From: Podarcis cretensis
Lineage: Eukaryota
Direction: 5' to 3'
Length of the DNA: 64,000 nt
Assembly (NCBI GenBank): GCA_951804945.1
Contig: OX638156.1
Coordinates: forward strand, 38,564,001 to 38,628,000
Shown here: positions 140 to 44,500 of the stretch, one piece after another
Layout of the letters: the number at the start of each line of letters is the position of its first letter
Position numbering within the stretch: the first letter of the stretch is position 1
Made by a program: the position numbers and the translations under genes
Notes under the pieces: generated by a model
The model's input: only the letters and a program-made list of their open reading frames with translations
Databases searched by the model: none
What the model was told of the DNA's origin: nothing

Positions 140-3100
140 GTGAGGCATGGATGGGGGCAGGGTTGGGCTCATTCTTTTGGGAAGGGATCAGCAGGCAGGC
201 TCTGCAGACTTAGGAGCGCAACTGAGACTACAATCCGAAGCTGCTAGGGGAGGGGGGCTGTTTTTCAGAAGCCGTCCGAGATTCCTTGCACTTCCCTTTA
301 CATGCAAATATTACAGACTGGCAAAGTGTAATTCCTGGTGAAATAGATGTAACTGTTCAGCTTCAATCTGGTAAAGCTCCAGGCTCCTCCTCTATCCTAC
401 CTGGTCAGTTAAAATCTATCCTAAAGTGCTGAGCACCTATTACCGTACTTTCAGTTCTTGGATTATATTTGGATTAAAGCTATAATAATCCCTGTTTAAA
501 AAGCTCAAAGAAAAAGTAGATAGACTTAGCAGGATTATTTTTAGCAGCCTCCTTTCAGTTATAGAGAAGTAATGTGCTGGGTTTTTAATCCAAACTTTTC
601 TGACTTGGGTTGAAGACAACCATCTCCCAGGGGAGAAACAGATTCATCTCAGAGCAGGTCAGTGTATTATTTGTTGCAGTGTATTAGCCCACATTGCAGA
701 GAGAGATACATACCTCATTTCCTGGCAGTGGGTTTTTCTCTTACTTCCATTGATTTTAAGTCAGCTTTGGACTTGGTTCCAAAGGAACTGTTATGATCCA
801 AATTCAGTAAAACCCTCTGTGGTGAGCTGAGCCTAGGGATAGATGAATATGTCAGTTCCTGCTTCTCTCACTATCTATTTCCACCTCCCCACCCCCAAAC
901 TTCAGTTCACATTTCTGCACCACTGTGCTTTTTTCTTTCTTTTAAAAGTCCTCATGAAAATCCATCAGCATTTCAGTCCACAATATACACATTTTGTATG
1001 CATTTTTGCCCAGTATGCACATTTTTGCAAGCATTTCTCCCCCAATACATTTTCACTAATAAATGAATTTTATACACTTTCCTCACACATTTCCTCCACT
1101 TTCCTCTCCTTCCTTGGAGGTTTTTAAGCAGAGGTTAGATGGTCATTTGTCATGGATGCTTTAGCTGAGATTCCTGCATTGCTAGGGCTTGGAGCAGATG
1201 ACCCTTGAGGTACCTTCCAGCTCTACAATTCCATGATTTTTTTGTACACAGCATTCGGTTGTAGAACTGCATCAAAAAATTCAGAGAGGTGTTAATTTCA
1301 AAGGATGGTTATGTCAGTTTTAGTCTGCGTAGACTCTTTGAGATGAATGGACATGACTAACAGGTTTATTAATGTCAATAGGTCTACTTTGAGTAAAACG
1401 CAGTTGGCTCCAGCCCTAAAATCCTAAGCAAACTGAATTTCTCCCACATCCCTATCTGAGCCATGTGTCCATCCTGCTACTATCTTGAGGAAGTAGGACT
1501 CCAAACTTTTGCATGTACATAGTCAGAATGCCCCTTTTATGTTGGTGGAGGAGGCACTGTGGTGGCACTGTGCTTTCTGGAATGGGTGGGATGACGTGGC
1601 ACCGTGAGAGCTGGGAAGCCACTGGCGCCAACCTGGAGTCTCCTTGCTTCACCCCATCCTCATGCAGATTAACACAGTGCTGTTGCTGCTGGGAAGACAC
1701 CACTGCTTTCAGCCACACATTCCAAGAGTCACCACTAGAGCACAGGTCTCTGTGTGGTTCTGTATGATTTCCTGACCTGCTTTCCCACTGCAACTCTCTT
1801 CCCCAGCTGCTTGTCTTCTTATGAAATCCCAGACAAGGGAAGATAACACATCTAGATCCCAGTGGGTGTGTGGAAAGGATTGGAGCAGAACAGGGGCTGG
1901 CAGGGAACTGCTTATGTACTTACCCCGTCACTTCTCCTTTGAAACTTGAATGCCCTCCCGCAGCAGATTTCATAACAGTTTTGGTCCCTGCCTTTGCAAT
2001 CAGTGTTCATTGGGGCCTAAGAGCAAGGAGTAGGGTTGTATATCTCCCTGTGTGTCCACATGGAGCCACCCAGGCCAAGATTCCTATCCCTGGCTGGATC
2101 TACACAGATATAAAAAATGCTATGGGAGAAAAACGCACTCTCTCTATATAGAGCTCCCAATGGAATTTGCCATTGACTTTGGATTGCAGCTCTACAGCCC
2201 CATCTGGTGTCACATTTTTATAGCGCACTTATAACATTATAATTGTAGCTGTGTAGCTGAGTCTCCTGTGATTATTAACTCAGGTTGCACTGCAAAGGAG
2301 ATCCGTGATAAGGTTTGCAATCAGGAGCAAGAACCTCTGGGAGACGACTGCCCCCCACGTCTGCGGGACGTCATCAACAAATGCCGGGATTTCGACCCTT
2401 CCCAGCGGCCAACTGCTGAAGGTACCAGTGACCTGGCCTGTAGCAGGTCTTGGGGACCAGAGATGTGGGCATGGCAGCTAAAGGGATCCAAATCATCATA
2501 CCCTATTCTTCCTCCACAAGCAAAGCAAAACTGGCATAGGTAGCCTCTCCCTGCCCTCCCCTTGCTTGGCCTCACTATTTGGAATGTTCCATTCTTTTCT
2601 TTTAAAAAAAGGTAACTCGCAACTTATGCACATTTAACTTATGCACATTTAATTCAGCTTTAAGCACATGGCAAACAAACAAACAAACAGGGAGGGGGGA
2701 AAGTTCAGGAAAAAAGAATTTGGCAATCCTACTTGCCATTGAATGCAGTGTTTTTTGACTATACACAATTTTTGCCTTATGTGCTATCCCCGAAATGTAA
2801 CCCCCATGAAAGATGAGAGTTGTCTATACTATCAAACAAGCACCAGACAACAATAGCATACAGAAAAGGGAAACAAAGGCAAGCAACATGTCCCCACTCA
2901 GTAAAAAAGCAAACAAGCAGGCAAAACAACAGGACATACCTGTGTGCCCTGCAATGGTCTAAGATAAATGCAATATACATCTGAAAACTAACTGTGTTAA
3001 CAAAAAAATACTAGAGGCAATACACCTAGAATTAAGACACCAGGCCCCTCCAAAACAACACAACAATAAGCAACAATGGTGGTGGTAGTGTTCCTCTGGG

Positions 3101-5683: not shown

Positions 5684-5982
5684 ATGTCCCACCAGGAAGC
5701 GATGGACGTGGACTTCGCGCCGGTGGCCGAGGAGCCCGAGTCGCCAGCCGCCGCCCCAAGCCGCCTTCAGGAACCGGCCGCGGCAGACGGGGACGCCTCG
5801 ACGTCCGGGGCGCCTCGGCCGGCGGCTTCTCGCTCTTCATGGGGCGCCTTCGTTGGGGAGCGCGAGTCGCGGAGGCCGCCGCCGCCTCGAGCCAGGAGGA
5901 ACCCGCCTCGGCAGCAGCAGGGACCGCGCGCCGCCTCAGCCGCCGCCGCCGCCTCCTCCTCCCAACGGGCCTCCCGAGCCAG
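5684..5982 (+). CDS. RFWD3: RFWD3 coding exon 1
   Basis: [10 protein letters not shown] (human MAHEAMEYD); donor AG|gtgagg. Confidence 0.85.
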
Positions 5983-8900
5983 GTGAGGAAGGGCGGGGGA
6001 AGGGCTCGGATCCTGTGGGGAGCTTCTCAGAGTGACCATGGGGCCTGAGAGAGTACGAAGGGCTGGGCGAGGGGAGCCCCTCGGAAACGGGGCTGAGCGT
6101 GGTGGGCCCCGCGGAGGAGGGAGAAGGTGCCTGTCGGAGCGAGGCAGCTGGGGTTTGTAAACAAGAGGCCTTTCGCGTTCCCTACCCTGGGGAAGCAAGG
6201 CTGTTAGGCTTCTCGGGCGCAGGTGGCTGTCAGAACGGAGGAGGAGACGGAGGAGGAGGAGGAGGAGGCGGGTCCTCGGGAGCCAGGGAGTGGATTCTGG
6301 GGTGGGTGAAGGGGGGCCTTTCGCAGGGGTTGTGGATTTTGTGAATCTTGCGGGGTGGGGTGGTGGAGGTACCTGTGGGTCATGCGTGTGGGTATGTGGA
6401 TGAGTGGAGGGGGTACCTGTCAGAGCAAGGAGGGTTGCTAAGCGAGGGAAGGAAGTGTGTGAGTGTGTGATGGTCATAGAAGGAGCATCTCAGAGCCAGG
6501 GGATGGATCATAGGGTGTGTGCGTGAAGGAGTGTCTGTCACAGTGGGGGAGTAGAGATCCTGGGGGAACACATGTCAGAATGGGGGTGGCGGCATGGAGC
6601 CTGCAGGGTTGGTCCTTGGAGCAGCAGATGGGTTCTGCGAGGATATGTGAAGGTGGTGTCTGGTGGAGCACATGCTGAATGCAGCTGGTATTTGTAAACA
6701 AGAGGACCCTCACATTTTTCTCCCTGTGTTCCTGAAGGGGAATGGGCTACACCACTGTCATAGTGTAGTAGCAGAGCAAATAGGCATAGGCAGGATTTTT
6801 TTGAGGGGGGGGTGTCTTTTTGTTAGGGGGGCAGAATAGAGTTACCTGCAGTACAAATGGTCAGTTAAGCATTTCTATTTATTTACTTGATGTAGTGGGG
6901 GGACAGCTGCCCCCTGCACCGCACCTGGCTATGCCCATGGTAGAGCATGTGTATTGTTGTGATAGAAATTACCCAGGGGCGTTTTGCTACTGGCGTGGGT
7001 CCAATTGCAACCACGTGGATGCCAGGTTGGCGACTAATATCTTCATCTGGCTGGCTTCAACAGCTTTCTTTAGCAGTAGCTCAGCAGAAGAGCTTGCTTA
7101 TTGCATTTATATCCCATCCTTTTCTCCAAGGAGTACATGGTTCACCCCTCTCCTACAGTGACCCTGTGAGGTAGGTTAAGAGGCTGTGACTGGCCCAAGG
7201 TCACCCAGTGAGCTTCATGACTGAGTGGGGATTTGAACCTTGATCTCCCAGGTCTTAGTCCAACACTCTAACCACACTGGCTTCCTTGAGTCCTCCTGCT
7301 ATGGTGCAGTTATATAAAATAAGTAGGCTTCAGAAAGGTTTAGAAAGGAGGTACCAGGTGGGGTTGAATCCTTGGTACACATTGTTGGCTCCTATTGGGG
7401 TCAATGTTGCAGTGGGGGAAGGGGGCTTCTCAGACCCAGGGAAAGGGATATTGAGTGTTTGTGAAGGGAAGCTACTGTCTGTGAGGAATGGATACTTCAG
7501 ATGGGGGCCTGTTGGAGTGGGAGTCAGATCCTGCAAAGTTGGTCCCTAACAGAGTGTATGCGAGAGGTGGATCTTGGGGGTGTGTGAGGTGAGCATCTGT
7601 CAGTGGGAGGGTTGATCTTCCAAGGAGGTTCCTGTTGGGGGGGATCATGAGGGAAGCAGATCCTGGAGGCAGCTGATATTTGTAAGCTGGCTTCTAGATA
7701 AACTCATGTGATAGGCGTGGGGCTTTAGTTTGGTGGTGGAGCTTGTGTTTTGCCTGCAGAGTAATTTGCTTGTTTCATGTGTTCTCTACCCAGCTCTCAG
7801 AGTAACTGTCAGAGCTGCCCCAAGGTCCCAGCTCACAGAGGACCAACGCCAGGTCGTCGTTATGTGCAAAAGTCTTTATTAAAGTTCAGTTTCCATTTCA
7901 AAGCCGTAGCGTGCAGCCCCTCGTCTTAGACCCTAGACCGCCGAAGCTCCGTCTGAGTCTCCGCCCCCTAGACACCAGTTTAAGACTCTAGCCTTACTCC
8001 ACCTCTTCCGTTGTTCTTTCCTCCTCTGGGTCCATCTGCCCGCCGGGGTGTTGCCCTTTCTGGACTCTTCTGATGCTGAAGAGTCCCCGGATTCTTCCCC
8101 CTGCCTCCGGCGTGCTTTAGGACCTGGCTCCCAATCCGAGCCCCCTGCTGTCCCGCGCGCCTGTACATTTGAACTTGGCGCGCGCGCTCACCCGGCCACC
8201 TTCCTCCTGACCGTTACACTGCTCCTGTCACTGCTTCCCCCTTCGGGGGGGCTAGCTGGATCTGACTTCCCCTCCGTTCCCTCACTCAGCGATAGGGGCG
8301 TGGTCAGCCCTGACTCATCTTCCCTCCCCACTGGAGGGGAAGCCTGCCCTGACACATGGGACTCTTCCCCCCCGCTACGCTCTGGTGGGGAAACTGGTCC
8401 CGATCTCCAGCTGCTGCCCTGAGAGTCGCTGCTGGCCCCTAGCTTCTGGTGCATCCCTCCCGGGACCCCCCTTGCCCTGGCCATCGGTGCCCCCTTCTGG
8501 GAATCTTCCGAATCGCTGGAGAAGCTCATGGAATCTCTCGTCTCACTGTCATACTCTCCTACGCTGCCCTTGGATTGTTCCCCTTCGCTCTCCTCTTCCT
8601 CTCTCCCCTGTGCCTCTGCTCCTGAGCCCCTGACAGTAACTTTAAGTTAAAAAAACAAAACTCCAGCCCCTGCCCTCAGAATTTACCATCTAAAGACTTC
8701 GCACCAAAAAGAAAGGGATGGGGAAGCAAGCCCAAATACCCATTTTGTACAAGGACCTGCTGGGATGGGAGATACTTGAGGGAGAGAAGATGCACTTCAC
8801 AGAATTGGGTACAAGGATGAGCATTTGTTGTAGGAATTTGTTGAGCTACACTTGGCTACAGAGTTGAACTTACAGAGCAATGTTCATGTTGATGGAAGGT

Positions 8901-11900
8901 AGCACATTATGAAAAGTTGGTTTAGAATCTAATGAAAAGTTGTGGCTTCTGAGGCAGAGGAGGAGAGAGAGGTGTGTAAATTATTGAACTTTGTGGCTTG
9001 GAAATGGGTGGGTCATATTCTTCTTTCCATCTTACATTTTCTAATGGAAATTTATGCTTTGGATGTTCAGGTCCACAGCACCATTAGACAGTTATTTCCA
9101 GATCAACAGGACACAAGCGACAGCAGCATCACACATCCTAGCAGGTCACAGTGGGAACAGCTCAGATGAAACTGTGGTTCTAAGTGATTCTGAGAGTAAC
9201 AGCAGCAGCAGCTCCACTGAGGAGGAAGAGGAGACAGTGGGTGCCCTTGAGGAGGCACCTGGGCCAGCCAACTTGGGAGGTTTGTATTGGTTCTTTAAAG
9301 GGGCCTAAAACTTCAGAAATGGCTCGTGATGCATTGCCTACCTTTGACCACAACCATCTAGTTGTTTACAGTCATACCTCGGATTGTGAACGCTGCGGGT
9401 TGTGCGTTTTTGGGTTGCGGACCACACCAAACCCGGAAGTACCAGAACGGGTTACTTCTGGGTTTCGGCACTTGCGCATGCACAGAAGCACAAAATGATG
9501 TCATGCGCAGAAGTGCCGAATCACGTCATGCGCGTGTGTACGCTGAAGGTTGCGAATGTGCCTCCCGCACGGATCACGTTTGCAACCCGAGCTATGACTG
9601 TATTCATTACCTTCTGCTTAGGGCAGCTTACTTCAAAGGGTATGACAATTGAATTTTCATAACAACTCTGAGAGGTAGGCTAGGTTGGGAGATGATGACT
9701 TGGGCCTGACCATACCGTTTATTTCATGACTGCAGAGACTTGAACCAAGGCCAGACTTTGCCACTGTATCCTGCTGTCTTTGAATAATTGAAAGCTGTTT
9801 TCTTTGTATAAACCTTGTTAAATGTCAAACTGAGGTTCTGTTATGCAAATAGGCATGCTTATTATTATTTTATTTCACACATACACAAAAAGGGTTTCAC
9901 AGAGGAATTTTGAGAAGGGGTTTATAGGGGAGATTCAGGTACCATATACATTTTATTTGTGCATTGTACTCCCTTTTCTGAACAGCAAGAGAAGTTTGGA
10001 GGTTATTTAAAAAGAGCAGATGAGGATAGTAAAAATGCAGGAACAAAGGTGGGGCATCTTGGGAAATGAGGGAAGAAAGGAAGGTTGAAGCAAGCCAGTT
10101 GGAACATAGGTGGAAGGGGGGTTGTGCTGGGAAGCCACCATTGGAATTTGCAGAGGGTGTCTTGCTGGCTGAGTTATTTTACTATTTTCTTACAAGTTTT
10201 TTTTTTTTTTTAAATTGCCTCCTGTTAACATAGTTTGAAGGATTATCTTGGTGAAAAAGCTGCTCTCTTTTCTCTTTTTTTCTTAGACAGCAGTGGCTTT
10301 GTGTTCAGTCACTTTGAACTTCCCTTTTAAATGCTAACAATTTGTTACTGAGTTTTTGTTTATGTGGCACTAATTACAACCTGTCCCCATCTCTTCCTAT
10401 ATTAATTATTCCTTTGTTTCTCCCCTGCAGTTTCTGATGCAACCCAAATGGAGCCTCCTGGAGGGGATTCTGTTGGGCCAGAGCATCCTGATGCTAGAGG
10501 TGCCACTGCCCTCCAGAAGAAGGTACGACTGATTTGGTGTGTGCTGTGGAGGGTGTGCAGCCAATTAAGATAAACCAATATTGCATTTGCTTGACCTTTT
10601 CCATGTTCTCTTGTTTCAGACAACTCCCTTAAAGAGAACTCACCTAGCTGCTCCTCTGGCTCCTCTGGGTGAGGAAGAGGAGAGTGGAGATACCTGTGCC
10701 ATCTGCTTTGAAGAGTGGACAAATGCTGGGGAGCACCGTCTTTCTGCACTGCGGTGTGGGCATCTCTTTGGCTATAGCTGCATTGAGAGGTGGCTGAAGG
10801 GACAAGTGGGCAAATGCCCACAGGTAAAAGCTTGGAAGGGTATTTTGTTTCCTCTGTCTGATGCGTAACCTAAATCTTCCTCTCTGAAACCCATTTATTC
10901 TTTTCCTGTCCTTGGTAAAATTTGTGGGCAACAGTTCTCTCCACATTATTTTCCTGTTTTCAATTCTCCCTTTCTGCATTACTTTCCATGCCATCTTCCT
11001 GTAAGCTCTTCCTCTTTTGGCTTGCCTTCTGTAGACCTTCTTGTGTTTTTCTTTGCACTCCCCTGAGCTGTGTTCCATTTTTTGGATGCCTTCTTCCTTG
11101 TTTTGGCACTCAAACACTTTAGTGGCACAGCACTTTAGCCAGCGTTGAGCACAGCAGGACTCCTCAAATCTGGGCTCTAGGAGTTGCAACAAGTTGTCCT
11201 TCCCTTTGGTCAAACTCTTCCTGTGAGGAGAGTATTTTTATCAGCATTTGCCAACTTGGTGCCCTCCATATGTTTTGGACTGCAAATCCCCTATCAGTGC
11301 CAGCTAGCACAGATGTGCTGGTTAAGTCTGAATGAAGTTATGTAATCCAAAACTTCTGGAGGACACCAAGTTGGCAGCAGCTGCTGTACATCATATTTGG
11401 TGACAGAGCAGTGGTAGAACTTCCACCTGAGACGATGGATTTTTGGAGGGGGGGGTAGTAAGGTGCTGTTTACCTTTTTAAGTTGTTGTCTTTGCTTTGT
11501 TGGCTAAGTTCAGGATTTTGCCTGGGATCAGTCAGGTCAACAAGACTACCTGTCGGCACAAGGAAACTTTGAGAAGAGATGCTTGGGCATGATGTTGAGC
11601 AGGTCACTTTTGCATGTTTGGGGGAGTCCCACTAATTGTTCTGGAGAATTACTTGAGATAAGGGGAGTCTCTCAGCAAGCCAACACTGTACATTCATCCC
11701 TGCTTTTGCAAAGAGATCTATTTGAAAAGCAGTATCAGTCATGAAAAATTAATAGCAGCACAGTAAATGTCCTTCATAACCAATAAATTGGCTTATGTTC
11801 ACATTTTTTCATTTTTTAGTGTAATAAGAAAGCCAAGCGCTCGGATATAGTAGTCCTTTATGCTCGTACCCTGAAAGCGCTGGACACCAGTGAACAGGAA

Positions 11901-14900
11901 CACATGAAAAGGTATATACTCACAACTTTCCTCCTATAAGTTTGAGGGTAGCAGTACCTGGCATAAACACCTGTCTTGGCAAACTGTCACTATGCCTCAG
12001 CTGAGTCACATGAGCATCTGTGTGATTGGAGAAGATACTTGTGTCCTAACCCCAGGCTTTAGTTCAAGGCCTTGCTTTGTTACACTTGTATTAGGTAGGT
12101 ATGATAGGTACAGTGTTTGGATGTCCCTGTGAAGATATATGCCTGCTTCTATAACTTTTTTTTTTACTGGTATATATATTTAAGATAAAATGAGATGCAT
12201 TTTCTATTGAATCTCTCATGGTTATTCTGAAATTGAAGTATTACTATTTAAATGTCTCTGTCTAAATTCAAGAGACTGTTATTATGTCTCTAAAAGTTTT
12301 TGGGTGGCAGGAAAATGGAACAGAAAACGAATTCTTCTCATCAGTGGGAGAGAGATGGGTTGGCTCATGAGCTTCCTTAATTGCATCTGTTGTACTTTCC
12401 TCCTGCAGCTCTTTAGAGAAGGAGCAAATGCTACGAAGGAAGGCAGAGCTGGAATCCGCACAGAGCCGCCTCCAGCTGCAGGTCTTGACAGATGAATGCA
12501 GTAAACTTCGGCAGCAAGTTCAGGTAGGTTTAGCCATATCCTGTTCATGCAGTACCTTCTAAATTCCCTTCCCATGTACAAGAAAATGAAATGCGCTATC
12601 TTCATGGCCTTTTCTCTCACTCTCTGCTAATGATGGACAGGATAATAGTATACCCCAGTTCACTGGCCCCAACTCTAGGGGGCCCTGGGTGGCACGGCAC
12701 CCACAACATTTTGTGGGTGCTTAGCATCCACACCGTGGGGCTCCAGTGCAACCTCTGAGGCGACGTGCGAGGCCCTGCCAGGCTTCCAAACGTGATTTCT
12801 GGTAGAAACGTTCTGCTGATGTAACATGACATCATGGTGTAATGTTACGTTGTGGGTGCCATTGGGCACCCAAAATCTGGGGCCCAGGTCGTCACCCTGG
12901 CCCAGTTTCATTCCTTGCTTTGAGTTTGTATGTCAAAGCTTGTGATCTGGGGAAAGGAGTCACAAAAACATTCCAAATCAAAACTCTAATCTGGTAAAAT
13001 TTATATACCCTCAGTGAATTTATATAACTCAGAAAACTTCCAGAGCAGTATTCCAGAGCACAAAAAAATCTGAATGGGGACCCACACAAGACATCCCCTG
13101 CCATACCCCCAGAGACAACCTCTCAAAACAGTTCTGAGACAGCGCTCTTCTTTGTCCCAGCCTGCATCTTCCAGACACTCATCACATCAATACATGGAGA
13201 GGAAACAGACACAGGAAGGAATAGAAATTGTATATTGCAGGAAATAGTGAAAAAACTAAGGCAAGCTCAGCTAAGGAACCACCTTGCAGAATGAAAAGTG
13301 GCAAGTTGAAGGGTAGGATATCCCAGCTATATTTTAGCTGGGGGATGAGATGGTTGGGCATTTGAAGGGCTTTTGCATTTGGTGTATTTCTTTTCTGTGA
13401 CAAAGTTTTTGTTTCAGAATTTATAAACCACTCTACATGCAAAAAATAGCCAAGTTGTATACAAAAGCAGTAAAGGAACAACAACCCTGAACAAGTTGTT
13501 CATGACTTTTACTACTGTTCTGCCTGTGGAAACATCCAGTGCTCTCGGCTCCACACATACCGTACTTTCTTTGCCTCATTTTTCCTGCTTTCTATTCTAT
13601 AGGAATTAAAGGCCCTGATGGCTCGCCACAACACCCTTTCCTCTCAGCAGCCCAGCAACTCTCGCTCATGCTTTCCAGGCTGCCTCTCCTCCAGCCAGGG
13701 CCAGCACAAGTACCACTTTGAGAGGGCCACCCTAGTGTCTCAGGTGGGCAACTGCCGGGTTATGGCATACTGCGACCCACTGAGCTGCCTTGTAGTGTCA
13801 CAGCCATCTCCACAAAGCACCCTCATTCCTGGTGAGTTGCCTGCTGAAGCAAGTCACTAAGTTTTATGATGGTAATGGTTTTTTCACTGCCTTGGTCAAT
13901 CAAGAGGACAGACATTGCAGCATTTGGACTCTAGCAAGGTGGGCTTTCTGCTGATCAGTTTGCTTTGTGTCTCAGGCTGTGGAATTAAGATGATGAGTGC
14001 TGTCAACTCAAAGAGCAGCCAATATGTCCCCATCCACAGCAAGCAGATCCGGGGCTTGGCTTTCAGCAACCGTGCAGATGGCTTGCTCTTATCTGCTGCT
14101 TTAGACCATACCCTCAAGCTTACCAGGTGAGTAGTGATGATTATGATGCCTGCTTCCTTTCTCTGTGGTCCAGGAGATTGTGTAAGGATCTTATTCTGGA
14201 AGTATTGCCTGGCTCCTGCAGAGCAGCTTTGTCTGAACTGTGCTGTTCTGCCCACAACTGGGTATCTGCTGGATAGCGTGGGCCATGTGCAGAAGTGCCA
14301 AGGTCCTCAGTGGGAGACCGCTTTGATATGTAAAGCTCCGCTAACTTTCCCTCAGCTTGACTACAAACACCGTTGTGCAGACATACAATACTGGTCGACC
14401 TGTCTGGAGCTGCAGCTGGTGCCTGGATGACACCAACTATGTCTATGCTGGCTTGGTCAACGGCTCTGTCTTGGTGTATGACCTGAGGGACACAAGCTCT
14501 CATGTCCAGGAGCTTGCTCCACAGAAATCCAGGTATCGCTTTCCTGCTTTATACAGTTAGGTTGTCCTTTGAACATATGAATTAAGACTGTAGAGGACTT
14601 TGAAGCAGATGAAGGATGATCTGTGCTTGTAGAACTTTACAATTTTCACGCCATGTGTTACTGGTATATCTTTCCTGGCACAGAATTTGAGGAACACTAC
14701 CTTTTACTCTGGTTGCTGGTTACCGCCCCACTGTAACCCAGAATGAAGACCTTTGAGAATGGCCTAATGGCAGAGGTTTAGCTTGATAAACTTGTCTGGA
14801 ACCCATTTCCAGTCCTTAATGCATTGCACTAAGACTTCTCAGAATGTGTATTTTTCAATCAGTTCTGTGGATGAGGAATAGGAATGAACATTGGGTGAGG

Positions 14901-17061
14901 TAAGCCCTGGAGAGATTGTCATACTTGCAATGTTGCTTGCAGTGATTGACTTCTACCTTGTTCTTTTCTGGGGTTGTGAACAGTCATGGTGATATGGAGC
15001 TCAGTTTGTTTCTTACTCAGAAGTCAATTGTGCAGTGTTCAGTGGTGCTTGCTCAGAGGTAAATATTAATAGGATTTCAGTCATAGCACCAGTTCTTTTG
15101 GCCAGTGGTATGTAGAAGTGAGAGTGATTCTCCAGTTCTCTTTGAAATCCTTCCTTACTCATGCTCATTCAGACTCACAACAGCAAATGGGTAGGGAAAG
15201 TGGAATGGTTTGACATTGTTGGTTATTGCTCTTTCCTCTGTCCCTCACAGGTGCCCTGTGGTATCCTTATCGTATCTTCCCCGAATGGCCTCTGCCTCAC
15301 TGCCCTATGGTGGACTGGTATCTGGGACACTGGAGGGAGCCTGCTTTTGGGAACAGAAGGCCAGTGGCTCTTACCGGCCTCACCACCTCCTCCTGGAGCC
15401 TGGAGGTTGCATTGACCTTCAGACAGAGGCCAGCACACGGCACTGCCTTGCAACATTCAGACCCAGTAAGTTGTGATGTGTAGACATCAGGGGAGGGCTA
15501 TTTTTATGCAGTGTTGGGATTCCTTTCACCCTAAATGTGGACACAGTTACAACTTTGTGGACAGAAACCACTTACCATATTTGTTGTTGGCGTCTCTTGC
15601 ACACACATTAAAAGAGAAGAGGATACCTCTGGCCTGCTTCTAAAATGCTGCACCAGTTATTCTATACCCCAGTCTCCCCAAATCTTTTCAAGATGATGGG
15701 GCACAGAGGGTGCAGTCTCCCATCCCCAAATACAATATGGATCTTTTACGGGAGGCATTATTTCCACCCTGGTGAAGGGTAAGTGCCAACTACTTCAGGA
15801 GTCTATCCCTCCCTAGAACTTTGCAGCTCCCAAGAGGGACCTTCTGTGCAGTATGAGCACTCCTGCTTCCGTAGGATGACATGCAAGGAAGGGATTGCAA
15901 GTGAGTAGTATCCTAAGGAAATGGGGTAGTTGCCATGAGCGGTGAGTGAAGCGGTCAGGCAGTGGCCTCTGGGCTGCACTTAAACCAGAGTACAGTGTTT
16001 TGTCTTGATACCTTCCTATGATACCTTGATACCTACCTGTCCCCTGAAAAGCTCTTCACTTTCATCCCACAGATAGAAACAATAACTGTTTACGGTGTGT
16101 GGTGATGGAGCTGACCTCTACTCAGCTGACTGATGGGACTGAGGATGTGATCTGTTCATGTCGTCCAGTTCAAACTCTTACTGCGGGTCCATCGTGCAAA
16201 CTCCTGACCAAAAATGCCATCTTCCAGAGTCCTGAAGATGATGGCAGTATTCTTGTGTGTGCTGGAGATGAAGCATCAAACTCTGCCATGGTACCATTTT
16301 TTTGTTCTTTGTTGTAGGAGTAGGACGTTGTTTCCGGCTCTGTGTTAATAGTCTAAAATGCTGGAAGCTTTGGTGGCGGTTAGGGTACTTGAGTAATTGT
16401 TTTCCTATGTTTTTAAGGCTATGCAGTTTCAAAGAGCTTAATGCCAGGTTGGTCATTGAGAAAAGACTTGAGCCCTTGTTCTAGTGAAAATTCTGTTTTG
16501 AGACACTGGTATAGCCTGTATCTGCCTCTTTGGAGCATTTCCTCATGGCAATAACAGTGCCATTTCCATTATATGGACATGGGGCTCTCTTGTCCTCCCT
16601 CTTCTCACTTTCCTTGAGGCTTGACTCTGGGTATGGACATGCATGTTTTCTGTGCCAGGGCTGCAACCACTCCTCCTTGTACACAGGGAGCGCCAAAGAG
16701 GGATGTCCTCAGCATTACAGCACTAATCACTTGCTCACTCTGAATCCACCCAAAATGTGTGGTGATGTTTGGCTGCTTGCCAATGTATGGGGGAAAGTAA
16801 CAGTTCAATACTTTTGTAACTGGTCTCCTTGCTACATCCCAACTAGTAACAGCTAGAGTTGTATTTTTATTCAACAGGATTCCTGATAAGCTGTGACTCT
16901 ATTTGTTTATCCTGCAGCTCTGGGATGCAGGGAGTGGCTCCCTGCTGCAGAAACTCCCTGCTGACCTTCCTGTGTTAGATGTATGCCCTTATGAGGTGAA
17001 CCGCAACAGCTTCTTGGCTACCTTGACAGAAAAGATGGTGAAGATCTACAAGTGGCAATGA
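5684..17061 (+). CDS. RFWD3: RING finger and WD repeat domain 3 E3 ubiquitin ligase (FANCW), complete; 12 coding exons, 2145 nt, 714 aa
   Basis: Exons 5684-5982, 9071-9279, 10431-10522, 10620-10823, 11820-11911, 12409-12523, 13603-13831, 13976-14126, 14356-14532, 15251-15465, 16073-16290, 16918-17061 are all GT-AG and in frame. They encode the RING ([44 protein letters not shown]), a coiled coil and WD40 repeats ending ...[10 protein letters not shown], matching recalled human RFWD3. Confidence 0.97.
6779..6939. mobile_element. hAT MITE
   Basis: Termini aataggcataggcagg / cctggctatgcccatg; 8-bp TSD gcagagca (6771-6778) / gtagagca (6940-6947). Confidence 0.65.
7098..7282 (-). mobile_element. 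tRNA-derived MIR/CORE-like SINE with L2-type tail
   Basis: tgtgaggtagg...tgactggcccaaggtcacccagtgagcttcatg...gggatttgaacc (reverse B box); related copies at 19205-19405 and 26128-26350. Confidence 0.7.
7807..8635 (-). mobile_element. Solo LTR (probably Gypsy-type), 829 bp, antisense in RFWD3 intron 1
   Basis: TGTCAG...CTGACA inverted termini; perfect 5-bp TSD GTAAC (7802-7806 and 8636-8640); minus-strand AATAAA at 7875-7880; CpGs largely retained. Confidence 0.85.
9071..9279 (+). CDS. RFWD3: RFWD3 coding exon 2
   Basis: ttcag|G; [15 protein letters not shown]...[11 protein letters not shown]; G|gtttgt. Confidence 0.9.
9369..9600. mobile_element. pogo/Tigger-type (Tc1/mariner superfamily) MITE, subfamily A
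   Basis: TA|CAGTCATACCTCGG...CCGAGCTATGACTG|TA. Confidence 0.9.
10431..10522 (+). CDS. RFWD3: RFWD3 coding exon 3
   Basis: ctgcag|TT TCT...AAG AAG|gtacga; bridges the phases of exons 2 and 4. Confidence 0.8.
10620..10823 (+). CDS. RFWD3: RFWD3 coding exon 4 (RING finger)
   Basis: [10 protein letters not shown]...KCPQ|gtaaaa. Confidence 0.96.
11242..11383. mobile_element. Hairpin-type MITE
   Basis: Inverted arms ccaacttggtgccctcca..gttttgga / tccaaaac..tggaggacaccaagttgg; related degraded copies near 34620-34680 and 58018-58140. Confidence 0.6.
11820..11911 (+). CDS. RFWD3: RFWD3 coding exon 5
   Basis: [30 protein letters not shown]. Confidence 0.95.
12409..12523 (+). CDS. RFWD3: RFWD3 coding exon 6 (coiled coil)
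   Basis: [38 protein letters not shown]. Confidence 0.95.
12661..12899. mobile_element. Degenerate hAT MITE
   Basis: 8-bp TSD ccccagtt (12653-12660) / gcccagtt (12900-12907); CA...CTG ends; internal gcacccac/gtgggtgc inverted motifs. Confidence 0.55.
13603..13831 (+). CDS. RFWD3: RFWD3 coding exon 7
   Basis: ELKALM...QHKYHFE...[10 protein letters not shown]...[10 protein letters not shown]. Confidence 0.95.
13976..14126 (+). CDS. RFWD3: RFWD3 coding exon 8 (WD40)
   Basis: GIKMMS...[11 protein letters not shown]...[14 protein letters not shown]. Confidence 0.95.
14356..14532 (+). CDS. RFWD3: RFWD3 coding exon 9 (WD40)
   Basis: [20 protein letters not shown]...VYDLR. Confidence 0.95.
15251..15465 (+). 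CDS. RFWD3: RFWD3 coding exon 10 (WD40)
   Basis: [11 protein letters not shown]...[12 protein letters not shown]...FRP. Confidence 0.95.
16073..16290 (+). CDS. RFWD3: RFWD3 coding exon 11
   Basis: [32 protein letters not shown]|gtacca. Confidence 0.95.
16918..17061 (+). CDS. RFWD3: RFWD3 terminal coding exon 12
   Basis: [47 protein letters not shown]. Confidence 0.95.
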
Positions 17062-35500: not shown

Positions 35501-38500
35501 CAGTCCCACATACAATGTATTTTCTTTGCATGCAGACCACCAATACAACGGTCCATTAATTTCAATGTGTTTACCCTGAATATTATTTTGTAAGGTTTAA
35601 AAACCAAATTCTAGTTATTTTTTAAATAGCCCATTCAAGTCTGAAATCGGCCTTAATAGTAGTTAATGGGTGTTGAGAAGGTACTGAGATGAGAGTAAGC
35701 GTCAAAGTTTTAAAAGTATGGGCAATCTACTTCCACCATCTGCTTTTACAAGGGATGATTATTGTTGTGCCATCTAAGGGACAACCATGCCTCTACCCAC
35801 TACTTCATTAGTGTTCCAGTAGTGTAAGGTGCTCACAAACAAATTAGTTGGGTTGTTCTTGGCATTTAATGAAATGTGAACCCTTTTAGACATAGGCAAG
35901 GCAAGTGTTGCTTCATCATTGTGAGATTTTCTAGAATCCTGTGGCTTCTGGCCACATGAAGTCTCAGCTGAGGGTCCTTCTGGGACTTCCACCAGAAGGT
36001 TGCCAAGCTGTTATTGCATTACCTTGTGCTCTGCTTCCTTTGTGGCCTTGGCTGAATTTTGGGGGGCAATTTGGACAATGACTTTTTGTTGGAAGTGCCT
36101 TGTCAGTCACTTGGACGTGGGTAGCTTGCGTCAAAGTCTCTTTTCTAATTAAACTTTGCTTTTTTAAAATATTTGATTTAGGCTGGCTTTTAAACTAATT
36201 AATTTTAAAAATAAAGTCTGGTGGCATCTTAAAGGCTAATGGAATAATAAAAGCTTTCATGAACAATCTACCAACTGAGGATAACATTTCACACATGTGC
36301 TGGAGCGGGCCATGGCCCGCAAAAGCTTCTGCCACATAGATTCTGTTGGTCTTTGCAATGCCACAATAGACAAACACATCTGCCTTTTGATAATCTGTCA
36401 CTATGATTAATTTAACGTAGGCTTAATGAATGCAACAGCTCAATGACTGCATCTTTTGGGTGATCTTGAAGGAAGCGGACCACGAGAACTTAGTAGCAAG
36501 CAAGCAAGCAAGCAAGCTGCTACTTGTTGCTGGAAGGGATAAGTATTCTTCCTTTTCAACAAATTTACCAAAACGTTACCTATTCGTAATAGGGCATAAA
36601 GGTTGACAGCCTGTCCCCAGAAGTGCCCTAACCCATAAAAGTATGCCAAAATACAGTCATACCTCCGTTTACATAACACCCTGGTTACGTAAACTTCGGG
36701 ATGCATGCGCGGCAAACCCGGAAGTATTTTACCGGGTTTTGCCGCATGCGCAGAAGCAACCCTCAGGTTGCGGAACATCAGGATTCGACTGGACCTCCGG
36801 AATGGATCCTGTCCGCAACCGGAGGTACCACTGCATCTTGTGTAAATTAATATGCCTGTTTATTCTAGTTGGGGGTTTGTTTGGACAGGGACGCGGGTAG
36901 CGCTGTGGGTTAAACCACAGAGCCTAGGACTTGCCGATCAGAAGGTCGGTGGTTCGAATCCCCACGATGGGTTGAGCTCCCGTTGCTCGGTCCCTGCTCC
37001 TGCCAACCTAGCAGTTAGAAAGCACATCCAGCTGCAAGTATATAAATAAGAACCGCTCCGGCAGGAAGGTAAACAGCGTTTCCATGCGCTGCTCTGGTTC
37101 GCCAGAAGTGGCTTAGTCATGCTGGCCACATGACCCTGAAGCTGTACGCTGGCTCCCTTGGCCAATAAAGTGAGATGAGCGCCACAACCCCAGAGTCGGT
37201 CACGACTGGGCCTAATGGTCAGGGGTCTCTTTACCTTTACCTAATGCATGAGACATTCTAAATTTCAAATAAAATAATTCAGCCATCTGTATTAAGGAAG
37301 ATGAACTATGATTCCAGTTGAACGCTGCCAACTTCTGTTATTTTTATTTATCAGAAGGAAAGAAGACAGTTTCTAATTTTGAATGTGTAGGTCATAGAAT
37401 CATAGGGTTGGAAGGGACCACAAGGGTTTTCTAATCCAACCACCTGCAATGCAGGAATCTTTTGCCCAATGTGGAGCTTGAACCCATTATCCTGAGATAT
37501 CCATGCTCTACCAGCTGAGCTATCCTGGGTTATGTGAAACATTTTTATCCTGCTGTTCAGCCAAAAAGGTTTCTAGAGCTGCTTATAGATCTGTAAAAAA
37601 GACACATTTACAGTCTAAAAGGTCTGGTGCTAGAAAAAAAAAATTACGTGGAGGAATGTTAGGAAGACTGAAGCTCAAGTTCAGGGGTGACGAACCTTTT
37701 TCATCCAGAGAGACACATTCCCTAGGGGATATATGCCAGTGGTGGGTAGAATCAGAGGCAAAAGTGGGCATATCAATGGGTTTTTGTATCATAGGGAACA
37801 GCACAAAAGCCACCCACTCTTGCATTTCTCAGCAAAACTCATTGGTGAGCCATAATGCTTTAGAACAGGGAAGTCCCAACAGGTTGATCACGATCTACTT
37901 GTAGATCCCCAGGAGGTTTTGGTCAATCGTGAATCCGGTCCTGGCCCCTCGCCCTGCCCTCCATTGTTGCACAGAATGGAAGACCTGAACCCCCCAAAAA
38001 GGGATTTGACCACTGCCAGTTTTTAATTCTGTGAGTAGATAGCAGTCTCTGGGGACTTGGCCACCACTGTTTTAGAGAAACAATGTGAGTTCATGATTCC
38101 TTCTTGAGACTATTGCTATGTGACTTCAGCAAAGTTACTAGGATCAGTAAGCATGCATTGCTTAGGGGCTTGAAGATTCATCCAAGTTGCATCTCAGTCA
38201 GTGTAAAATCAGTAGAGGACATTTGGCTTCATTCTTCCTTGCCCTTGCTTTTCTTGAGGGAAATCCCAACATTTTTTAACAAAATTCGGGAGGGGGCACT
38301 AAAATTTGTTTATGGCCTCTGCTTTGTCTTCTTGTCCCCCTTTTCCTTGAGTGTTACAGTTCAAATAACCTAAATCCCCAGCTGTGCATACCATGATGGT
38401 GATGGACATTTTAGGAAGCAAATTTGACGGCATCTTTTATTGGGATCCAGGAAAAATCCATTGTGGCTTGCTCTCATTATGAATATAGGGCAATCTTTAT

Positions 38501-41500
38501 TGCAGTTCAAGGCTACAGGAGCAGGTCCCACTCACTAGATCAGCATTGCTCAAACTTTGCATACCTGGAGCATAAATCTTTTATTAGAATTAAAACTGGA
38601 AGCACATTTACATTCCCAAAAAGTATAAGAACTAACTAAATCAGTTAGAATAAAGGCAGTTCGTAATCTTAAAGTATGCTGATGTTTAATGCTTTGCCAG
38701 AAGAAGTTTTTATTTGACCAAGAAAATGATATTGTCACAGGAAGTCAAAGTTGAAGAAAAGATTTTGGAAGATAAAAGGGGAAAAATATTTACTTTCATT
38801 ATTATCATTTTGGGTGTGGGTGTCTGCACATACGTGTGTTTTTGTATGGAATGTTTGGGAAGAAATAAGACGGTAAATAACAAATAACAAACTAAATATT
38901 GATGTATGTGGTTTTTATATCTTGATTGTATTTGGTGGTAGTGTGGTTGTATTGTTTTTTTGTGGCATAGAATCATTCAATAAAAATTATTTTAAAAAAG
39001 AAAAAAAGAAAATGACATTGTCTTCAACGCAATCCAAATTTCAATGCCAGTAATGTTTGCCAGCTTAATTGTCATGTTCAATCAGAAACAGAAATTAAGC
39101 GGGCATTTTAGCAGCTTCATTTACATGTCCCTTGTGAAGAAAACATGAGCTGGTGTTTAGACTAACTCACCTTAACTTGGCAGGGCTGGAAACATTCTGG
39201 GTCCTTGGTTGCTCATGCCCTTCCACTGCTGATGCGGATGACTATAAATTTTAAATTTGCTCCTAGACCACTGAACAAGATCTTAGGGCTATATATAGGT
39301 ATCTGTTCCATTGTTAAAATTTATTGCTGGTTTGGGGTATATGGCCAGTCGAGATGTATGAACAAAATTATGCTGATATTTTAAAAAAGAAAAAGCTTAG
39401 CTTGGCCGTGTATCCTAGTAGACTAGTAGACAGTGTTAGATACTGAGATAGGAATGCTAGGAGTCATGTGGCTACTGGGACCTAGGTTGTGGGCGCCAAA
39501 ACAAAATGTCTAGGTGCCATTTTTTGATGTTGTTGCCCTGCTACCAATCCAGGCAGCCCTGCAAAAAAACCCAAAAAATGCAGGGAGAATCGGGGTTGCA
39601 GGGTAGCATGGCAGCAAAAGATGCATTTTTTGCTATCGCTCTACTCCGCTAAACACCTGATTCACCTGGCTGCGTGACAGCAAAATAAAGACACATCCTT
39701 TGCTGTTGCACTGATGGGCAAATCTGGTGTTTGGTGGGGGTACGCTGTGCAGAAAAAGACGTGCATCTTTTGCTGCCGCTGTGCCCAGCAGATCAGCTGA
39801 CTGCACCTAGGCAGGTGGAGATGTTAGGCGCCAAAGGTGGCTCCTGGACATCTTCATTCAGTTGCAAAAGGCTGGGTAATTTCGAACACTGCTAGCAGAT
39901 GAGAAGGCACATGGCTAAAATGCTTTGTTGCTGCCTTGCTTGGAAGAAGCAAAAAACAATTCAGTAGGACCACTGTGGATTAGAGCAGCCCTCTTTTTGT
40001 ACACTCTTTGTGCTAAATAGGCTTATGGCAAACTGTTTTCAGAGAAGTGGACTCCTTTGTCATTTAAAAATACCACATCCTGTTTGCTGGGATATGGATC
40101 TCATTGAAAGACTATATAAAGCTTGTCTCTTTCCACCCACTGTGTAGACTGTAGAAAATGAAATGGTCTTCTCCTTTTTTCTTCCCCCACAGAGCCTTAG
40201 CCAGTGTAATAAAATAGTGTATTACTTTTAGCTATAGTGATATTGCTCAATAGTGATACTGATATTTATACTTAAGCTTTTACTGTTTGTAAGTTGTTAT
40301 GGATGACCTCTGCCTGCAAATGTGTCATATATATCTTCATTTGTTTTTTGTTGATACAGAAAGGGATTGGAGCCTGTTTCCTGGTGAGGGTACTAGGAGG
40401 ATAAGCAATGAGACAAAAATATTGTGCATTGAGGCACCAAACATAAAACATCACTACTTGTGTGATTGTTTGCTTATTTTATTTAAAAATCATGTTATTA
40501 CTGTTATTTTGGGCTCACTTTTCAGACCCACAATTACTGTCGGCCAAAGATAACATTTTTTAAAAAAATCAGGCCTTGCCATCTGGCTTAGAAACTAAAA
40601 AGATAAAAGACACACAAAGAAGGTAGTGGAGAGAAAAGGTAGAGAAAGGAGAACAAATTAATTACAAAGCAGGCACTTTTATCCAGCTTGGGTGGGGCAG
40701 GTCTTCCCTGGCTTGAAAGCAGCCGGTGGCTCCTGACCCTTTGGCTGTTGGATGGGGCCATGAGAGTGTCCTTTGCCCTTTGCTAACTTCTCCAGTCCCA
40801 GGGCAAGAAGCTGTTGGAGCTGCTCTTTCTCTGGCTGACATTTAGGGCCAGGTTCCTCTTCCCCTTGTCAAGATCCTTTCTGGGAACTGGGGGTACAGTC
40901 TCTGAGTGGCCCTCGGTCCTGTGGCTGGTAGCAGAGGCATGAGTGTGCTTCCATTCACCTCTGCAGCTACAGTGCATAAATATCCTGGAGGGCTAGAGAA
41001 GAATTCTTACAATCCAGGATGTGACCTGAGTCTCTTGGTGAAAATTACACAAGGGTCAGGGTGTTCCAAGATATTGCTGCTGGGTCTCGCCCACTGAGGC
41101 AAATACTGATATCACATGGCTGCTTTGCAAGAAGTAACAAGCAGCTGTGAAGGCACAGTGGTTGAACTCAACCTGAAGGACCTTTGCCAAGGAAGCTCAG
41201 AGAACAAGCAACCCAGTTCAGGTTGAGGGGAAATGCAGAGAGAGGCTCACTGAAGCCTGTGCTGCTCCCATTGTGAAGCTGACGCCTGTGCATCTACAGT
41301 TTTGCAGAATCAAGGCTGTTGTGGAATAGCAGTCAGCTTTCTGACTAGGAGCCAGAATGAGTTCCACCGGAGCTAGCAGCAAGGTGACTTGGGGCACGGG
41401 GAGCTATGAGGCTGGAGGAACTGAGTAGTTTTTCTGGCCTTTTGATTAGGGATGGGTACAACTATCAACATTTCATAAATATATGGAGTCATTTGTGCAC

Positions 41501-44500
41501 ATGATGCTTCATAGTGTTATAAACAAAGAAGTCCCTACCCACCAAAAGCTAGTGAATGTGAACAGATGAGCATAGTTAATCTAAACATATTACAGTGGTA
41601 CCTCTGGTTGTGAATGGGATCCATTCCGGAGCCCCGTTCGCAACCTGAAAGGAACGCAACCCACGTCTGTGCATCTGCATATGCGCGGGTCGCTATTTGC
41701 AGCTTCTGTGCATACGCGTGACGTCATTTTGTGCGTCTGTGCATGTGCGAGTGGCGAAACCCGGAAGTAATCCTTTTCTGGTACTTCCGGGTTGCCGCAG
41801 GATGCAACCTGAAAAAACATCATGAAGCAAATGTCACAAGAGGTATCACTGTACAAAAAAGATTGGTTTTGCAGAAGGATTTGAAGGGGTAATGGTGTAA
41901 ATATGGCACTTTGTGATGTGCAAGCAGGGTGTTAAGTGGAAAAGTAGCAGCCAGAGGAGTTCTGATGGAAGTTCTGGTTGAGCAGAGACTTTTATGGCTG
42001 TGAGTGGTAGTTTTCAGGCAGGCCTGGGTGGAGGGCAATTAATACAGCCTCTTTTTATTCCGTTCCACTCTGTCTGGGCGGAGACTTGATAACTTCTGGA
42101 CTTTTGCTCCAAAGGGAGCAAAATAAAATTCATGAGGGTTTTGTTAGCACTTTTCTTCAAAATTGTAATTCCTAATTGTGAACTGTGACCCATGGACAGG
42201 ATAAAAAAATTCTGGATGGCCTATGATCTGAAGAGGTCATGAGAAATATTTCATGAATTAAATTCTACTTGCTTTAGTTTGATGGAACCTCTAGGGTGCC
42301 TTATAAATCTCTGGCTTGTCTACACTTCATTGCTTTATGAAATAACACTATTGCAAAAGCAATACAAGACCACTGTTCCAAAAAAGCAAAACATCCTATG
42401 ACTGCTGCCTTTCAGTTGAGGCCATTTCCCTGGGCAGCAGAGATTGATTAGATTAGATAAATTTGCCTTTAATCTGTGAGTTGACAATCTCTTGTGGTCT
42501 GATTTCATCATTTATTTAATAATGCACATTATTCTGAAACAATAGTTTGTGCCTGTTCGTGTGGAAGGAATACAGTGCAACATGACCTGCTCAGAATTAA
42601 TGTCCCTTTCTTTCTTTTTCCAGCCGGACAATGAAATCTCATCAGACTGCAACCACGTAAGTGTGCTTTTTTTCTGTAGGGCTGGCACTTGCTTCTTTAT
42701 TGATTCAGTGATTTATATTCTGACTTTTTCAAGGTGGCTTAGAATAAATATAACATTTAAAACCAATATCTTTAAAAAAACCTTAAAAGAGCAGCACCTC
42801 ACAACTTATAATTAGACAATTATAGAAGCCATATGCCAAAGAGAAAAATACAGTTTAAAATCCTAATAAAACCAGATATTTAAAGCCCTTTTAAAGAAAA
42901 CAGGGAGGGAGCTGTAAGTGGCATTTATTATTACTTTGAAACATTTGCTTCTGGCAAATTGGCTTCTTTCAGGGATCCTAGGCCAACTCCTTTTAAGTAG
43001 TAAAGGCTCCTGTTTGTTTATTTCTCTGTGATCTATATAGACAATTTAGATTTTTTTGTGACCATCTTGATAGGAACATAAGTACTAAATCCAGTCAAGT
43101 AGGATAGTATGATGTTTGGGCTTATTTATGTGCAGAAGAATGCCTTAATTAAAATGATACTATTCAGTGGCACCCCAGCTTGTTAAACTGGTGCTGATAT
43201 TACAATCTTTTTGGTGCAAAGTTAAGATTTCCTTTTTTGCCCAGGCATTTTAAAGTGACTTCATCTGTCTTAGGTCTCATTTTTGCATTTTAGCTGCTGC
43301 CCTTTTAGTTTTTACTTTAGAGTGGATTATATTTCCCTGTTGTTATATTTTAATATTGTTATACATCACCCTTTAGATGAAGAATGGTTAACTTAAAAAA
43401 TAAATAAAGTAAAGTAAAAAGTGGACTGGAGGACATTCGGTTAATAGGATGACTCTTTCAATGAATTGGGTAGACAGGGCATTTTAAGTCTCTTCCCTCC
43501 TGTTCCACTCATCTACCCGAAACAGCTATTCACCGACACATATCTCTACCTATATCTATATCCCTGGGGTACCAGGCATGCTTACCAGGGTCTGTTTTTC
43601 GTTTTGGACAATGAGGCACATCAGAGATGGTGGCAGCTTTATGATACATGGTTTATTTACACATATATACAATCTTAGCCTAGATGGAGGGAGTTCAGAG
43701 CATTCACATCCCAAGACAGTCCTGTTCATTCCATTACTGCAGCCTTGAGTTCAAAGAGCTCCCAAACATTGTGTCTGACCCTTCCTTCATTATAAAACAG
43801 ACTGTCATCCTTTTTTTTTTTGCGCTCCCCCTCCCCCAAGCTTGTAAAACAGACATCTTTTTCCTGTTCACTTCTAACAGGCAAACTGTAATCCTAAACC
43901 AAAACTATTGGTCTTTTGTCTTACTAATGATCCCCTCCTGTTTGTGGCTGGCACAGCTTTTGCTTTGCTGATGGCCAATCTTGATGGGTCACGACTGTCT
44001 TTGTTTCTTAAAGATGATTCCTTGATCAGGATAAAATCAAGTTTAGCATGTATTTTTACACTGCTAAATTCAGTGTCAGGCACCTTCTGTTAATTCTTCA
44101 AATATTGGTTGAATTCTAACATTCTAGCCTATAACAATCAAAATACGCATACACACACAAACTGAGGGGTACAGATAGGTTATTTAACTTTCTCTGCAGT
44201 GGAATGCTCTCATGGCATGGCATGGAGAAGACTGATTGGCCATGGGTGCTGTCATAAGCACAGAATCTCAAGTTCCACTAATTATGGCTCTGTTTGTTTT
44301 GAGATTCTTCATGATTATGAGCCATAGAAGTAAGCTCTCGTTTGATTTTTTTAAAAAATGAGATTTACACACCACATGCTTCCCTAAGTTCTGTATTCTC
44401 CATATGTCAGAGCATCAGTATATTAATGTGTTTCTGAAAATCACATGAAAAGTGCTGTGCAGGAAATGCGTTGGTTGGCTTGTGTTCACATAGATTTAAA

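Follow-up and report, generated by a model that had tools for sequence, protein, structure and literature searches.

The long open frame of a wall-lizard solo LTR as the probable end of a Ty3/Gypsy integrase

Why should a solitary long terminal repeat (LTR) consist largely of one reading frame? The question is raised by a solo LTR on the minus strand of a 64,000-nucleotide stretch of the Podarcis cretensis genome (contig OX638156.1, positions 38,564,001 to 38,628,000; hereafter the window). A first-pass annotation made from the letters alone had recognized it as such. The LTR is 829 nt long, has TGTCA...TGACA ends and is flanked by a GTTAC target-site duplication (TSD). That annotation offered two explanations for the frame. 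Either translation of the full-length element's integrase carries on into the LTR, adding a disordered acidic tail with a nuclear localization signal (NLS), or the LTR encodes a separate accessory gene. Our analysis points to the former. In the parent elements, a Tf1/sushi-type Ty3/Gypsy family referred to here as lineage A, the pol frame very probably continues through the polypurine tract (PPT) and all of U3, giving the integrase a 391-residue acidic tail whose basic end would likely serve nuclear import or chromatin binding.

In the window copy, the frame opens at nt 2 of the LTR (8634) and meets stops only at nt 446 (TGA) and nt 701 (the TAG at 7935-7933). This leaves 233 codons before the TAG, with a single internal stop, as first described. 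The remaining two sense frames have 12 stops apiece. The LTR is 60% GC and poor in T, and 10% of dinucleotide shuffles (n = 3000) yield at least 233 codons with no more than one stop in some frame. At P = 0.10, the long frame of this copy proves nothing alone, and the original caveat about chance stands for the single copy. Chance is excluded only through the family, where the caveat gives way to open copies, read-through and frame-specific ratios of nonsynonymous to synonymous substitution (dN/dS). A Pfam search of the pieces of the LTR frame and of the integrase tail returned 0 families. The window copy diverges by 1.6-2.2% from its five nearest genomic copies and, because its TSD is intact, would be a young product of LTR-LTR recombination.

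We searched the genome (1.5 Gb, 51 contigs) for further copies of the LTR. The best 40 matches among 3442 first-look candidates, a figure that is no copy number, are 92-100% identical. Full-length LTR matches (n = 34) include 27 solo LTRs with a 5-bp TSD, and 22 longer fetches yielded 14 two-LTR elements of 5.6-6.7 kb end to end, whose LTR pairs are 95.3-99.9% identical. These elements have TG..CA LTR ends, a TSD and a PPT. They encode Gag with a CCHC knuckle, then pol with protease, reverse transcriptase (RT), RNase H, integrase and an SH3 domain; the closest relative of solved structure is Ty3 Gag-Pol. A chromodomain-like region follows, scoring 21.5 bits against Pfam Chromo (E = 2e-4), below the cut-off of 25.1. 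Gag, at 377 aa, and pol, at 1591 codons, take up the whole of the 6.7-kb element, which has no env-like third open reading frame. Compared with gag, pol is read in the -1 frame, and the overlap of the two contains GGGAAAC in 11 of the 14 two-LTR elements.

One of these elements (L072) contains the full-length frame that the first-pass annotation had suggested looking for. A single frame of 1591 codons begins before the protease and takes in RT, RNase H, integrase and SH3. It continues across the PPT as far as nt 696 of the 3' LTR, where it terminates. At 6 of 30 pol-end loci, the frame is open from upstream of the chromodomain through to the LTR stop. Pol in full-length copies crosses the PPT and terminates about 700 nt into the 3' LTR. 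Judged by these sequences, U3 of the 3' LTR encodes the end of an acidic, low-complexity integrase tail. The predicted tail extends 391 aa past the chromodomain, with E, G and S at about 14% each. It comprises 159 internal residues, strongly acidic, and 232 LTR-encoded residues that are basic in the last 70. Among 62 aligned LTRs, 33 are open, 25 are frameshifted and 4 carry in-frame stops. No stop site in the tail frame is common to more than 2 of the 62, while the other two sense frames have stop sites present in 52-62 of them. The internal TGA of the window copy is private, since no other of the 62 has a stop at that site. Its proposed origin by deamination of an arginine codon (CGA>TGA) was not borne out by the copy examined.

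The tail frame also differs from the other frames in how it has changed. Between tree-defined subfamilies, net dN/dS of the tail frame is 0.20-0.42 in 8/8 comparisons (bootstrap upper bounds <=0.81), against 0.73-2.44 for the other sense frames. With singletons taken as a neutral control, the ratio of nonsynonymous to synonymous changes (N/S) is 90/77 in shared variants and 110/47 in singletons (p = 0.003), and removing CpG transitions leaves this unchanged (p = 0.003). Stops account for 0 of 167 shared variants and 7 of 157 singletons (p = 0.006). The dN/dS below 1 between subfamilies for which the annotation had proposed to test was thus found. It had also proposed to check indel lengths. 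The sole subfamily-wide indel in the frame measures 3 nt (34/62 copies). Three copies have a 1-nt deletion, and most indels confined to one or two copies have lengths not divisible by three (19 versus 8). These comparisons indicate frame-specific purifying selection on the putative LTR-encoded tail.

The end of the frame coincides with a second feature of the LTR. In 12 of the 14 lineage-A two-LTR elements, the primer-binding site (PBS) has a perfect 10-12-nt match to a site at LTR nt 682 (7954-7944 in the window). The pairing comes in four sequence versions, which co-vary on both sides. The primer of Tf1 is 11 nt long. Elements that self-prime in the Tf1/Tj1 manner pair their PBS with the 5' end of the mRNA (PMC4600332, PMC6317226). 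Because of this pairing, and because a TATA-like box lies 30 nt upstream, the nt 682 site would mark the U3/R boundary and the 5' end of the mRNA. In lineage A and in the distant lineage B described below, LTR nt 2 is the point of entry of the frame, and its stop lies some 20 nt past the self-primer site. Therefore, the frame would fill U3 and end just inside R. The whole of U3 would then be constrained in two ways, by its promoter role at the element's 5' end and by the 100-233 integrase codons that it supplies at the 3' end.

Lineage B was located through a Pfam SH3 search of the genome. Its pol is 54% identical to that of lineage A (RT, 72%), and its LTRs (402-440 nt) cannot be aligned with lineage-A LTRs. 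Short LTR pairs were present in 15 of 20 fetches and missing from 5. In 9 of these 15 two-LTR elements, a pol frame of 485-1351 codons ends at a stop inside the 3' LTR. From nt 2, 25 of 30 LTRs are open for 100-109 codons (100, 102, 105, 107 or 109) and share the same C-terminus. Across 12 frames, dN/dS is 0.18-0.40 in 8 computed pairs. In the last 45 columns, it is 0.09-0.27 in the 7 pairs where it is defined, with dS of 0.5-1.8 and dN of 0.06-0.34. Both lineages cross the LTR junction as D-V-R, and both end in an Arg-rich run, the motif [LIV][LI]xW (33/33 open frames in A, 13/13 in B) and a short D/S end. The lineage-B integrase extends 200 residues past the chromodomain, which Pfam Chromo recognizes at 39.8-46.1 bits, above the cut-off. 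PBS/LTR self-complementarity recurs in 11 of 15 elements, again as perfect matches of 10-12 nt in co-varying versions. In contrast to lineage A, AATAAA is found in none of 15 scanned lineage-B 5' LTRs. Lineage B includes a very young family, with pol frames of identical length (1351 codons) at many loci (such as L122 and L123) and LTR pairs 99.5-100% identical, which suggests very recent transposition.

Could the open frame be a by-product of GC- and purine-rich composition and recent amplification, and the tail a functionless read-through? The single-copy shuffle result, the youth of the copies with their near-identical LTR pairs, the tail's want of a Pfam match and a transversion-only test at p = 0.15 would all fit. 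Such a by-product would not be expected to have low, frame-specific dN/dS in two lineages whose LTRs are unalignable, to change length in frame in both, or to keep a C-terminal motif as synonymous sites near saturation. The lineage-B data have already largely refuted this reading, which we find scarcely credible. Alternatively, the frame is kept open while the constraint on its end comes from overlapping DNA or RNA signals and not from the peptide. The LxW codons do overlap the TATA-like hexamer in lineage A and a T-rich element in lineage B, and the last codons overlap the self-primer. However, the excess of dS over dN in the last 45 columns of lineage B is the opposite of nucleotide-level constraint, and the second half of the lineage-A frame passes the shared/singleton test without CpG (p = 0.01). 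This explanation is unlikely.

A separate U3 accessory gene, translated from the internal ATG in solo LTRs as well, is very unlikely. MMTV sag and HIV nef are protein-coding sequences in U3 of this kind, separate genes with their own start. Here the frame is instead the end of pol and is continuous with pol in both lineages, which leaves an accessory gene unsupported. The ATG and AATAAA are almost universal (Table 1) and 33 of 62 LTRs are open, yet the inferred transcription start lies 575 nt downstream of the ATG, a P. lilfordi relative lacks the ATG (P0004, P0139), and singletons, with 7 stops among them, behave neutrally. The annotation had further imagined solo LTRs spreading a near-complete coding cassette with its own ATG (8529) and poly(A) signal. 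Both signals are indeed present. The idea is unsupported because transcription would start about 20 nt before the stop, and because the window copy lies antisense in an intron of RFWD3 and carries its private stop. Were a solo LTR to be transcribed from its own promoter, about 227 of the 233 codons would lie upstream of the start, and the frame could not be transcribed in this way. In the window copy, then, the frame would be a young, non-expressed relic. A gene model that might favour an accessory gene is P. muralis P0012, a phospholipid-transporting ATPase whose last 45 aa are a basic C-terminus that a lineage-B LTR encodes. At the orthologous ATPase locus of the present genome (L145), no LTR lies within the 9.9 kb checked, and the last exon looks ordinary. 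The P0012 ending is either an artefact of the gene model or an insertion specific to that species. Solo LTRs of the family all have a frame that is open or almost so, and they can thus mislead gene prediction (P0012, P0139).

We return to the reading in which pol extends through U3. Under this model, the genomic RNA would start near nt 682 of the 5' LTR (self-priming), and pol would be made by a -1 frameshift at GGGAAAC. The 3' U3-R copy of the mRNA would be translated up to the stop about 20 nt into R, before AATAAA. The integrase of Gag-Pol would then carry SH3, the chromodomain and a long acidic tail completed by its U3-encoded part, and the basic tail end would act in nuclear import and in tethering to chromatin. 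Ty1 integrase and the plant CRM group A are the analogies that would make import and tethering the most likely job of the tail. The 391 residues are probably disordered. In an AlphaFold model, the mean predicted local distance difference test score (pLDDT) is 45. Confidence is low everywhere but in a C-terminal helix within the basic part (block pLDDT 75). A loose bipartite NLS pattern is found in 33/33 open lineage-A frames.

Several observations weigh against this model. L072 is the only unbroken pol among the 14 two-LTR lineage-A elements. The 62 LTRs are best hits, and 7 of them cannot count as independent, having flanks in common with another copy. The pol core is much more constrained than the tail (shared N/S 38/125), and transversion-only tests are not significant for the LTR (p = 0.15) or for the internal tail (p = 0.21). 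Within groups, dN/dS in the tail frame is already 0.39-0.79, so the drop below 1 is partly due to biased mutation or to hidden substructure. Low dN/dS is also seen in one antisense frame (0.28-0.54), which has few stops family-wide; we read this as a shadow of the sense codons. Contigs of four putative RNA runs cover pol-end and LTR parts and show no strand, start or end. A classical monopartite NLS pattern is present in 0/33 open lineage-A frames (10/13 in lineage B). Finally, low pLDDT is no proof of disorder, because the alignment behind the model held 4 sequences and failed on the chromodomain too.

The tail has a further conserved part outside the LTR. In both lineages, the chromodomain is followed directly by aromatic helix-like residues, a linker of 8-10 aa and the motif FxGF. 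Lineage A has one such unit and lineage B has two. The unit precedes the LTR and does not occur in the window. FQGF is kept in 25/25 aligned lineage-A copies, and both lineage-B motifs are kept at 11 of 12 loci with long open tails. The 25-element alignment omits L044, L047, L060, L068 and L071, which are rearranged or truncated. In the alignment A2, the invariance of the F and G columns is circular because its rows were chosen by a pattern requiring F/G. One FxGF arises in 1.5% of shuffled lineage-A tails and two arise in 0.04% of shuffled lineage-B tails; the complete unit arises in 23 of 100,000 shuffled tails. These figures are flattering because the motif was noticed after the fact. HIV integrase uses the TND surface of LEDGF/HRP2, by a mode different from that of the cellular partners. 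The TND-interacting motif (TIM) of these partners consists of a helix, an acidic or S/T-rich linker of 8-16 aa and FxGF (PMC9987994; bioRxiv 10.1101/624023).

This resemblance raises the possibility, a doubtful one, that the tail is a modular host-factor tether. The FxGF unit would mimic a TIM and dock on the LEDGF/HRP2 TND, and the LTR-encoded basic helix would serve nuclear import or nucleosome contact. The linker is acidic and 9-10 aa long in lineage B. In lineage A, it is S/T-rich, 8 aa long and without an acidic residue, which speaks against a TIM, as does the absence of any match at E <= 10 when a profile of the unit was searched against the PDB. A single-sequence search gave one irrelevant match (E = 1). 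A model of low confidence, with pLDDT about 45, places a helix at residues 59-66, a candidate for the hydrophobic helix that a TIM requires. When the P. muralis LEDGF integrase-binding domain was modelled in complex with the first lineage-B FxGF peptide, the scores were 0.17 and 0.16 (mark, 0.34); with no alignments used, no controls folded and a tool untried on peptides, this is evidence neither for nor against. Our literature searches found no report of a TIM in a retrotransposon integrase. If the mimicry is real, a retrotransposon would reach LEDGF through a linear motif, in convergence with lentiviruses, and a promoter region would double as coding sequence. Nuclear entry and target choice of vertebrate Ty3/Gypsy elements are poorly known, and the basic C-terminus and the TIM-like unit are short, testable candidates.

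The genomic distribution of the elements is uneven. Leaving aside three contigs of unknown length, 18 of 37 lineage-A elements with internal sequence lie <=1.5 Mb from a contig end (3.6% expected). They occur at both ends and have distinct TSDs where checked. Among young lineage-B elements, 2 of 17 lie as close. Retention, or targeting to heterochromatin, would explain the clustering of lineage A no less well than tethering to gene bodies, a further point against the TIM. Solo LTRs L022, L023, L026, L028 and L036 (also L029 and L037) have the same flanks although they lie on five different contigs, in every case close to a contig end; they represent one insertion spread within a duplicated subtelomeric block.

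How do these elements compare with known systems? The Tf1/sushi group of Ty3/Gypsy chromoviruses (GyDB V-clade: Sushi-ichi and Amn-ichi/ni/san) has the same gag-CCHC, the same order of protease, RT, RNase H and integrase, and no env (PMC6317226, PMC4600332, PMC2774666). It likewise shares SH3 and a chromodomain at the integrase end, the latter being a chromodomain-like region in lineage A, and a non-tRNA PBS complementary to an LTR site. Unlike in that group, the integrase here runs 200 (B) to 391 (A) residues beyond the chromodomain and ends within the 3' LTR. Our literature searches listed no report of pol entering the LTR in vertebrate Tf1/sushi members, although Butler et al. 2001, Repbase or supplements may describe it.

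Extension of pol into the 3' LTR is already known from plant CRM elements. In CRM group A (CRM, Beetle and Bingo), the polyprotein frame runs on into the 3' LTR, where a targeting domain is encoded (PMC3059260, PMC3605345). There, however, the LTR-encoded CR motif replaces the chromodomain, the PBS matches tRNA-Met and the host is a plant. Here, a chromodomain-like region lies upstream of the PPT, priming is likely to be by self-complementarity, the host is a vertebrate, and the 100-233 LTR codons span all of U3. Ty1 integrase offers a functional parallel, with a large disordered C-terminal half and a short C-terminal segment that tethers to a host factor (PMC8487063, PMC10050235). A C-terminal NLS is also reported for it. 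In contrast to the present case, Ty1 is a Copia element in which integrase precedes RT and is not LTR-encoded; no sequence similarity is claimed.

Database relatives with the same tail are proteins of Podarcis muralis and P. lilfordi and also Logan contigs. Among those of P. muralis, P0007 and P0008 have this tail in full. A profile search of 1.84 billion representatives gave 6 matches: 3 from P. muralis, 2 Logan relatives and 1 repeat-rich, likely chance match. No fish or amphibian relative surfaced in that search, which is weak evidence. An ESM Atlas search returned chromodomain clusters only (best score 0.78) and is at most a lead.

Table 1. Features of the solo LTR in the window (positions within the 64,000 nt)
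Feature	Position	Strand	Remarks
Solo LTR, 829 nt, Tf1/sushi-type Ty3/Gypsy (lineage A)	7807..8635	-	TGTCA...TGACA ends and TSD
TSD GTTAC, upstream copy	8636..8640	-	5-bp duplication
TSD GTTAC, downstream copy	7802..7806	-	5-bp duplication
C-terminal part of putative pol/integrase tail, 233 codons and TAG	7933..8634	-	As in the 3' LTR of full-length elements
Internal TGA, private	8188..8190	-	Stop at this site in 1/62 aligned LTRs
Internal ATG	8527..8529	-	In 62/62 LTRs of the genome; absent in the Podarcis lilfordi relative
Arg/Lys-rich C-terminal motif ending [LIV][LI]xW	7975..8037	-	Common to lineages A and B; helix, sole segment with pLDDT >70
TATA-like CTTAAA, putative	7979..7984	-	30 nt upstream of self-primer site, overlaps coding frame; 58/62 copies
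Self-primer site, 11 nt, complementary to element PBS; putative U3/R boundary and transcription start	7944..7954	-	
AATAAA, putative polyadenylation signal	7875..7880	-	61/62 copies; 53 nt past frame stop

The host gene of the insertion, RFWD3, spans 5685-16314 on the plus strand of the window. A CpG island at 5.0-6.5 kb precedes its RING and WD40 exons (Pfam matches), which occupy 10.6-16.3 kb. Two antisense frames cover the LTR on the plus strand, in the same sense as the RFWD3 transcript (7937-8422, 161 codons; 8256-8633, 125 codons). A kinase exon lies upstream of RFWD3 (2235-2540, plus strand). A second CpG-island gene start is found at about 20.2 kb (20167 onward, plus strand), and its gene is presumably GLG1, which the N-terminus resembles. 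Several copies of short interspersed repeats are dispersed in both orientations over 9551-47218 and 36907-46234.

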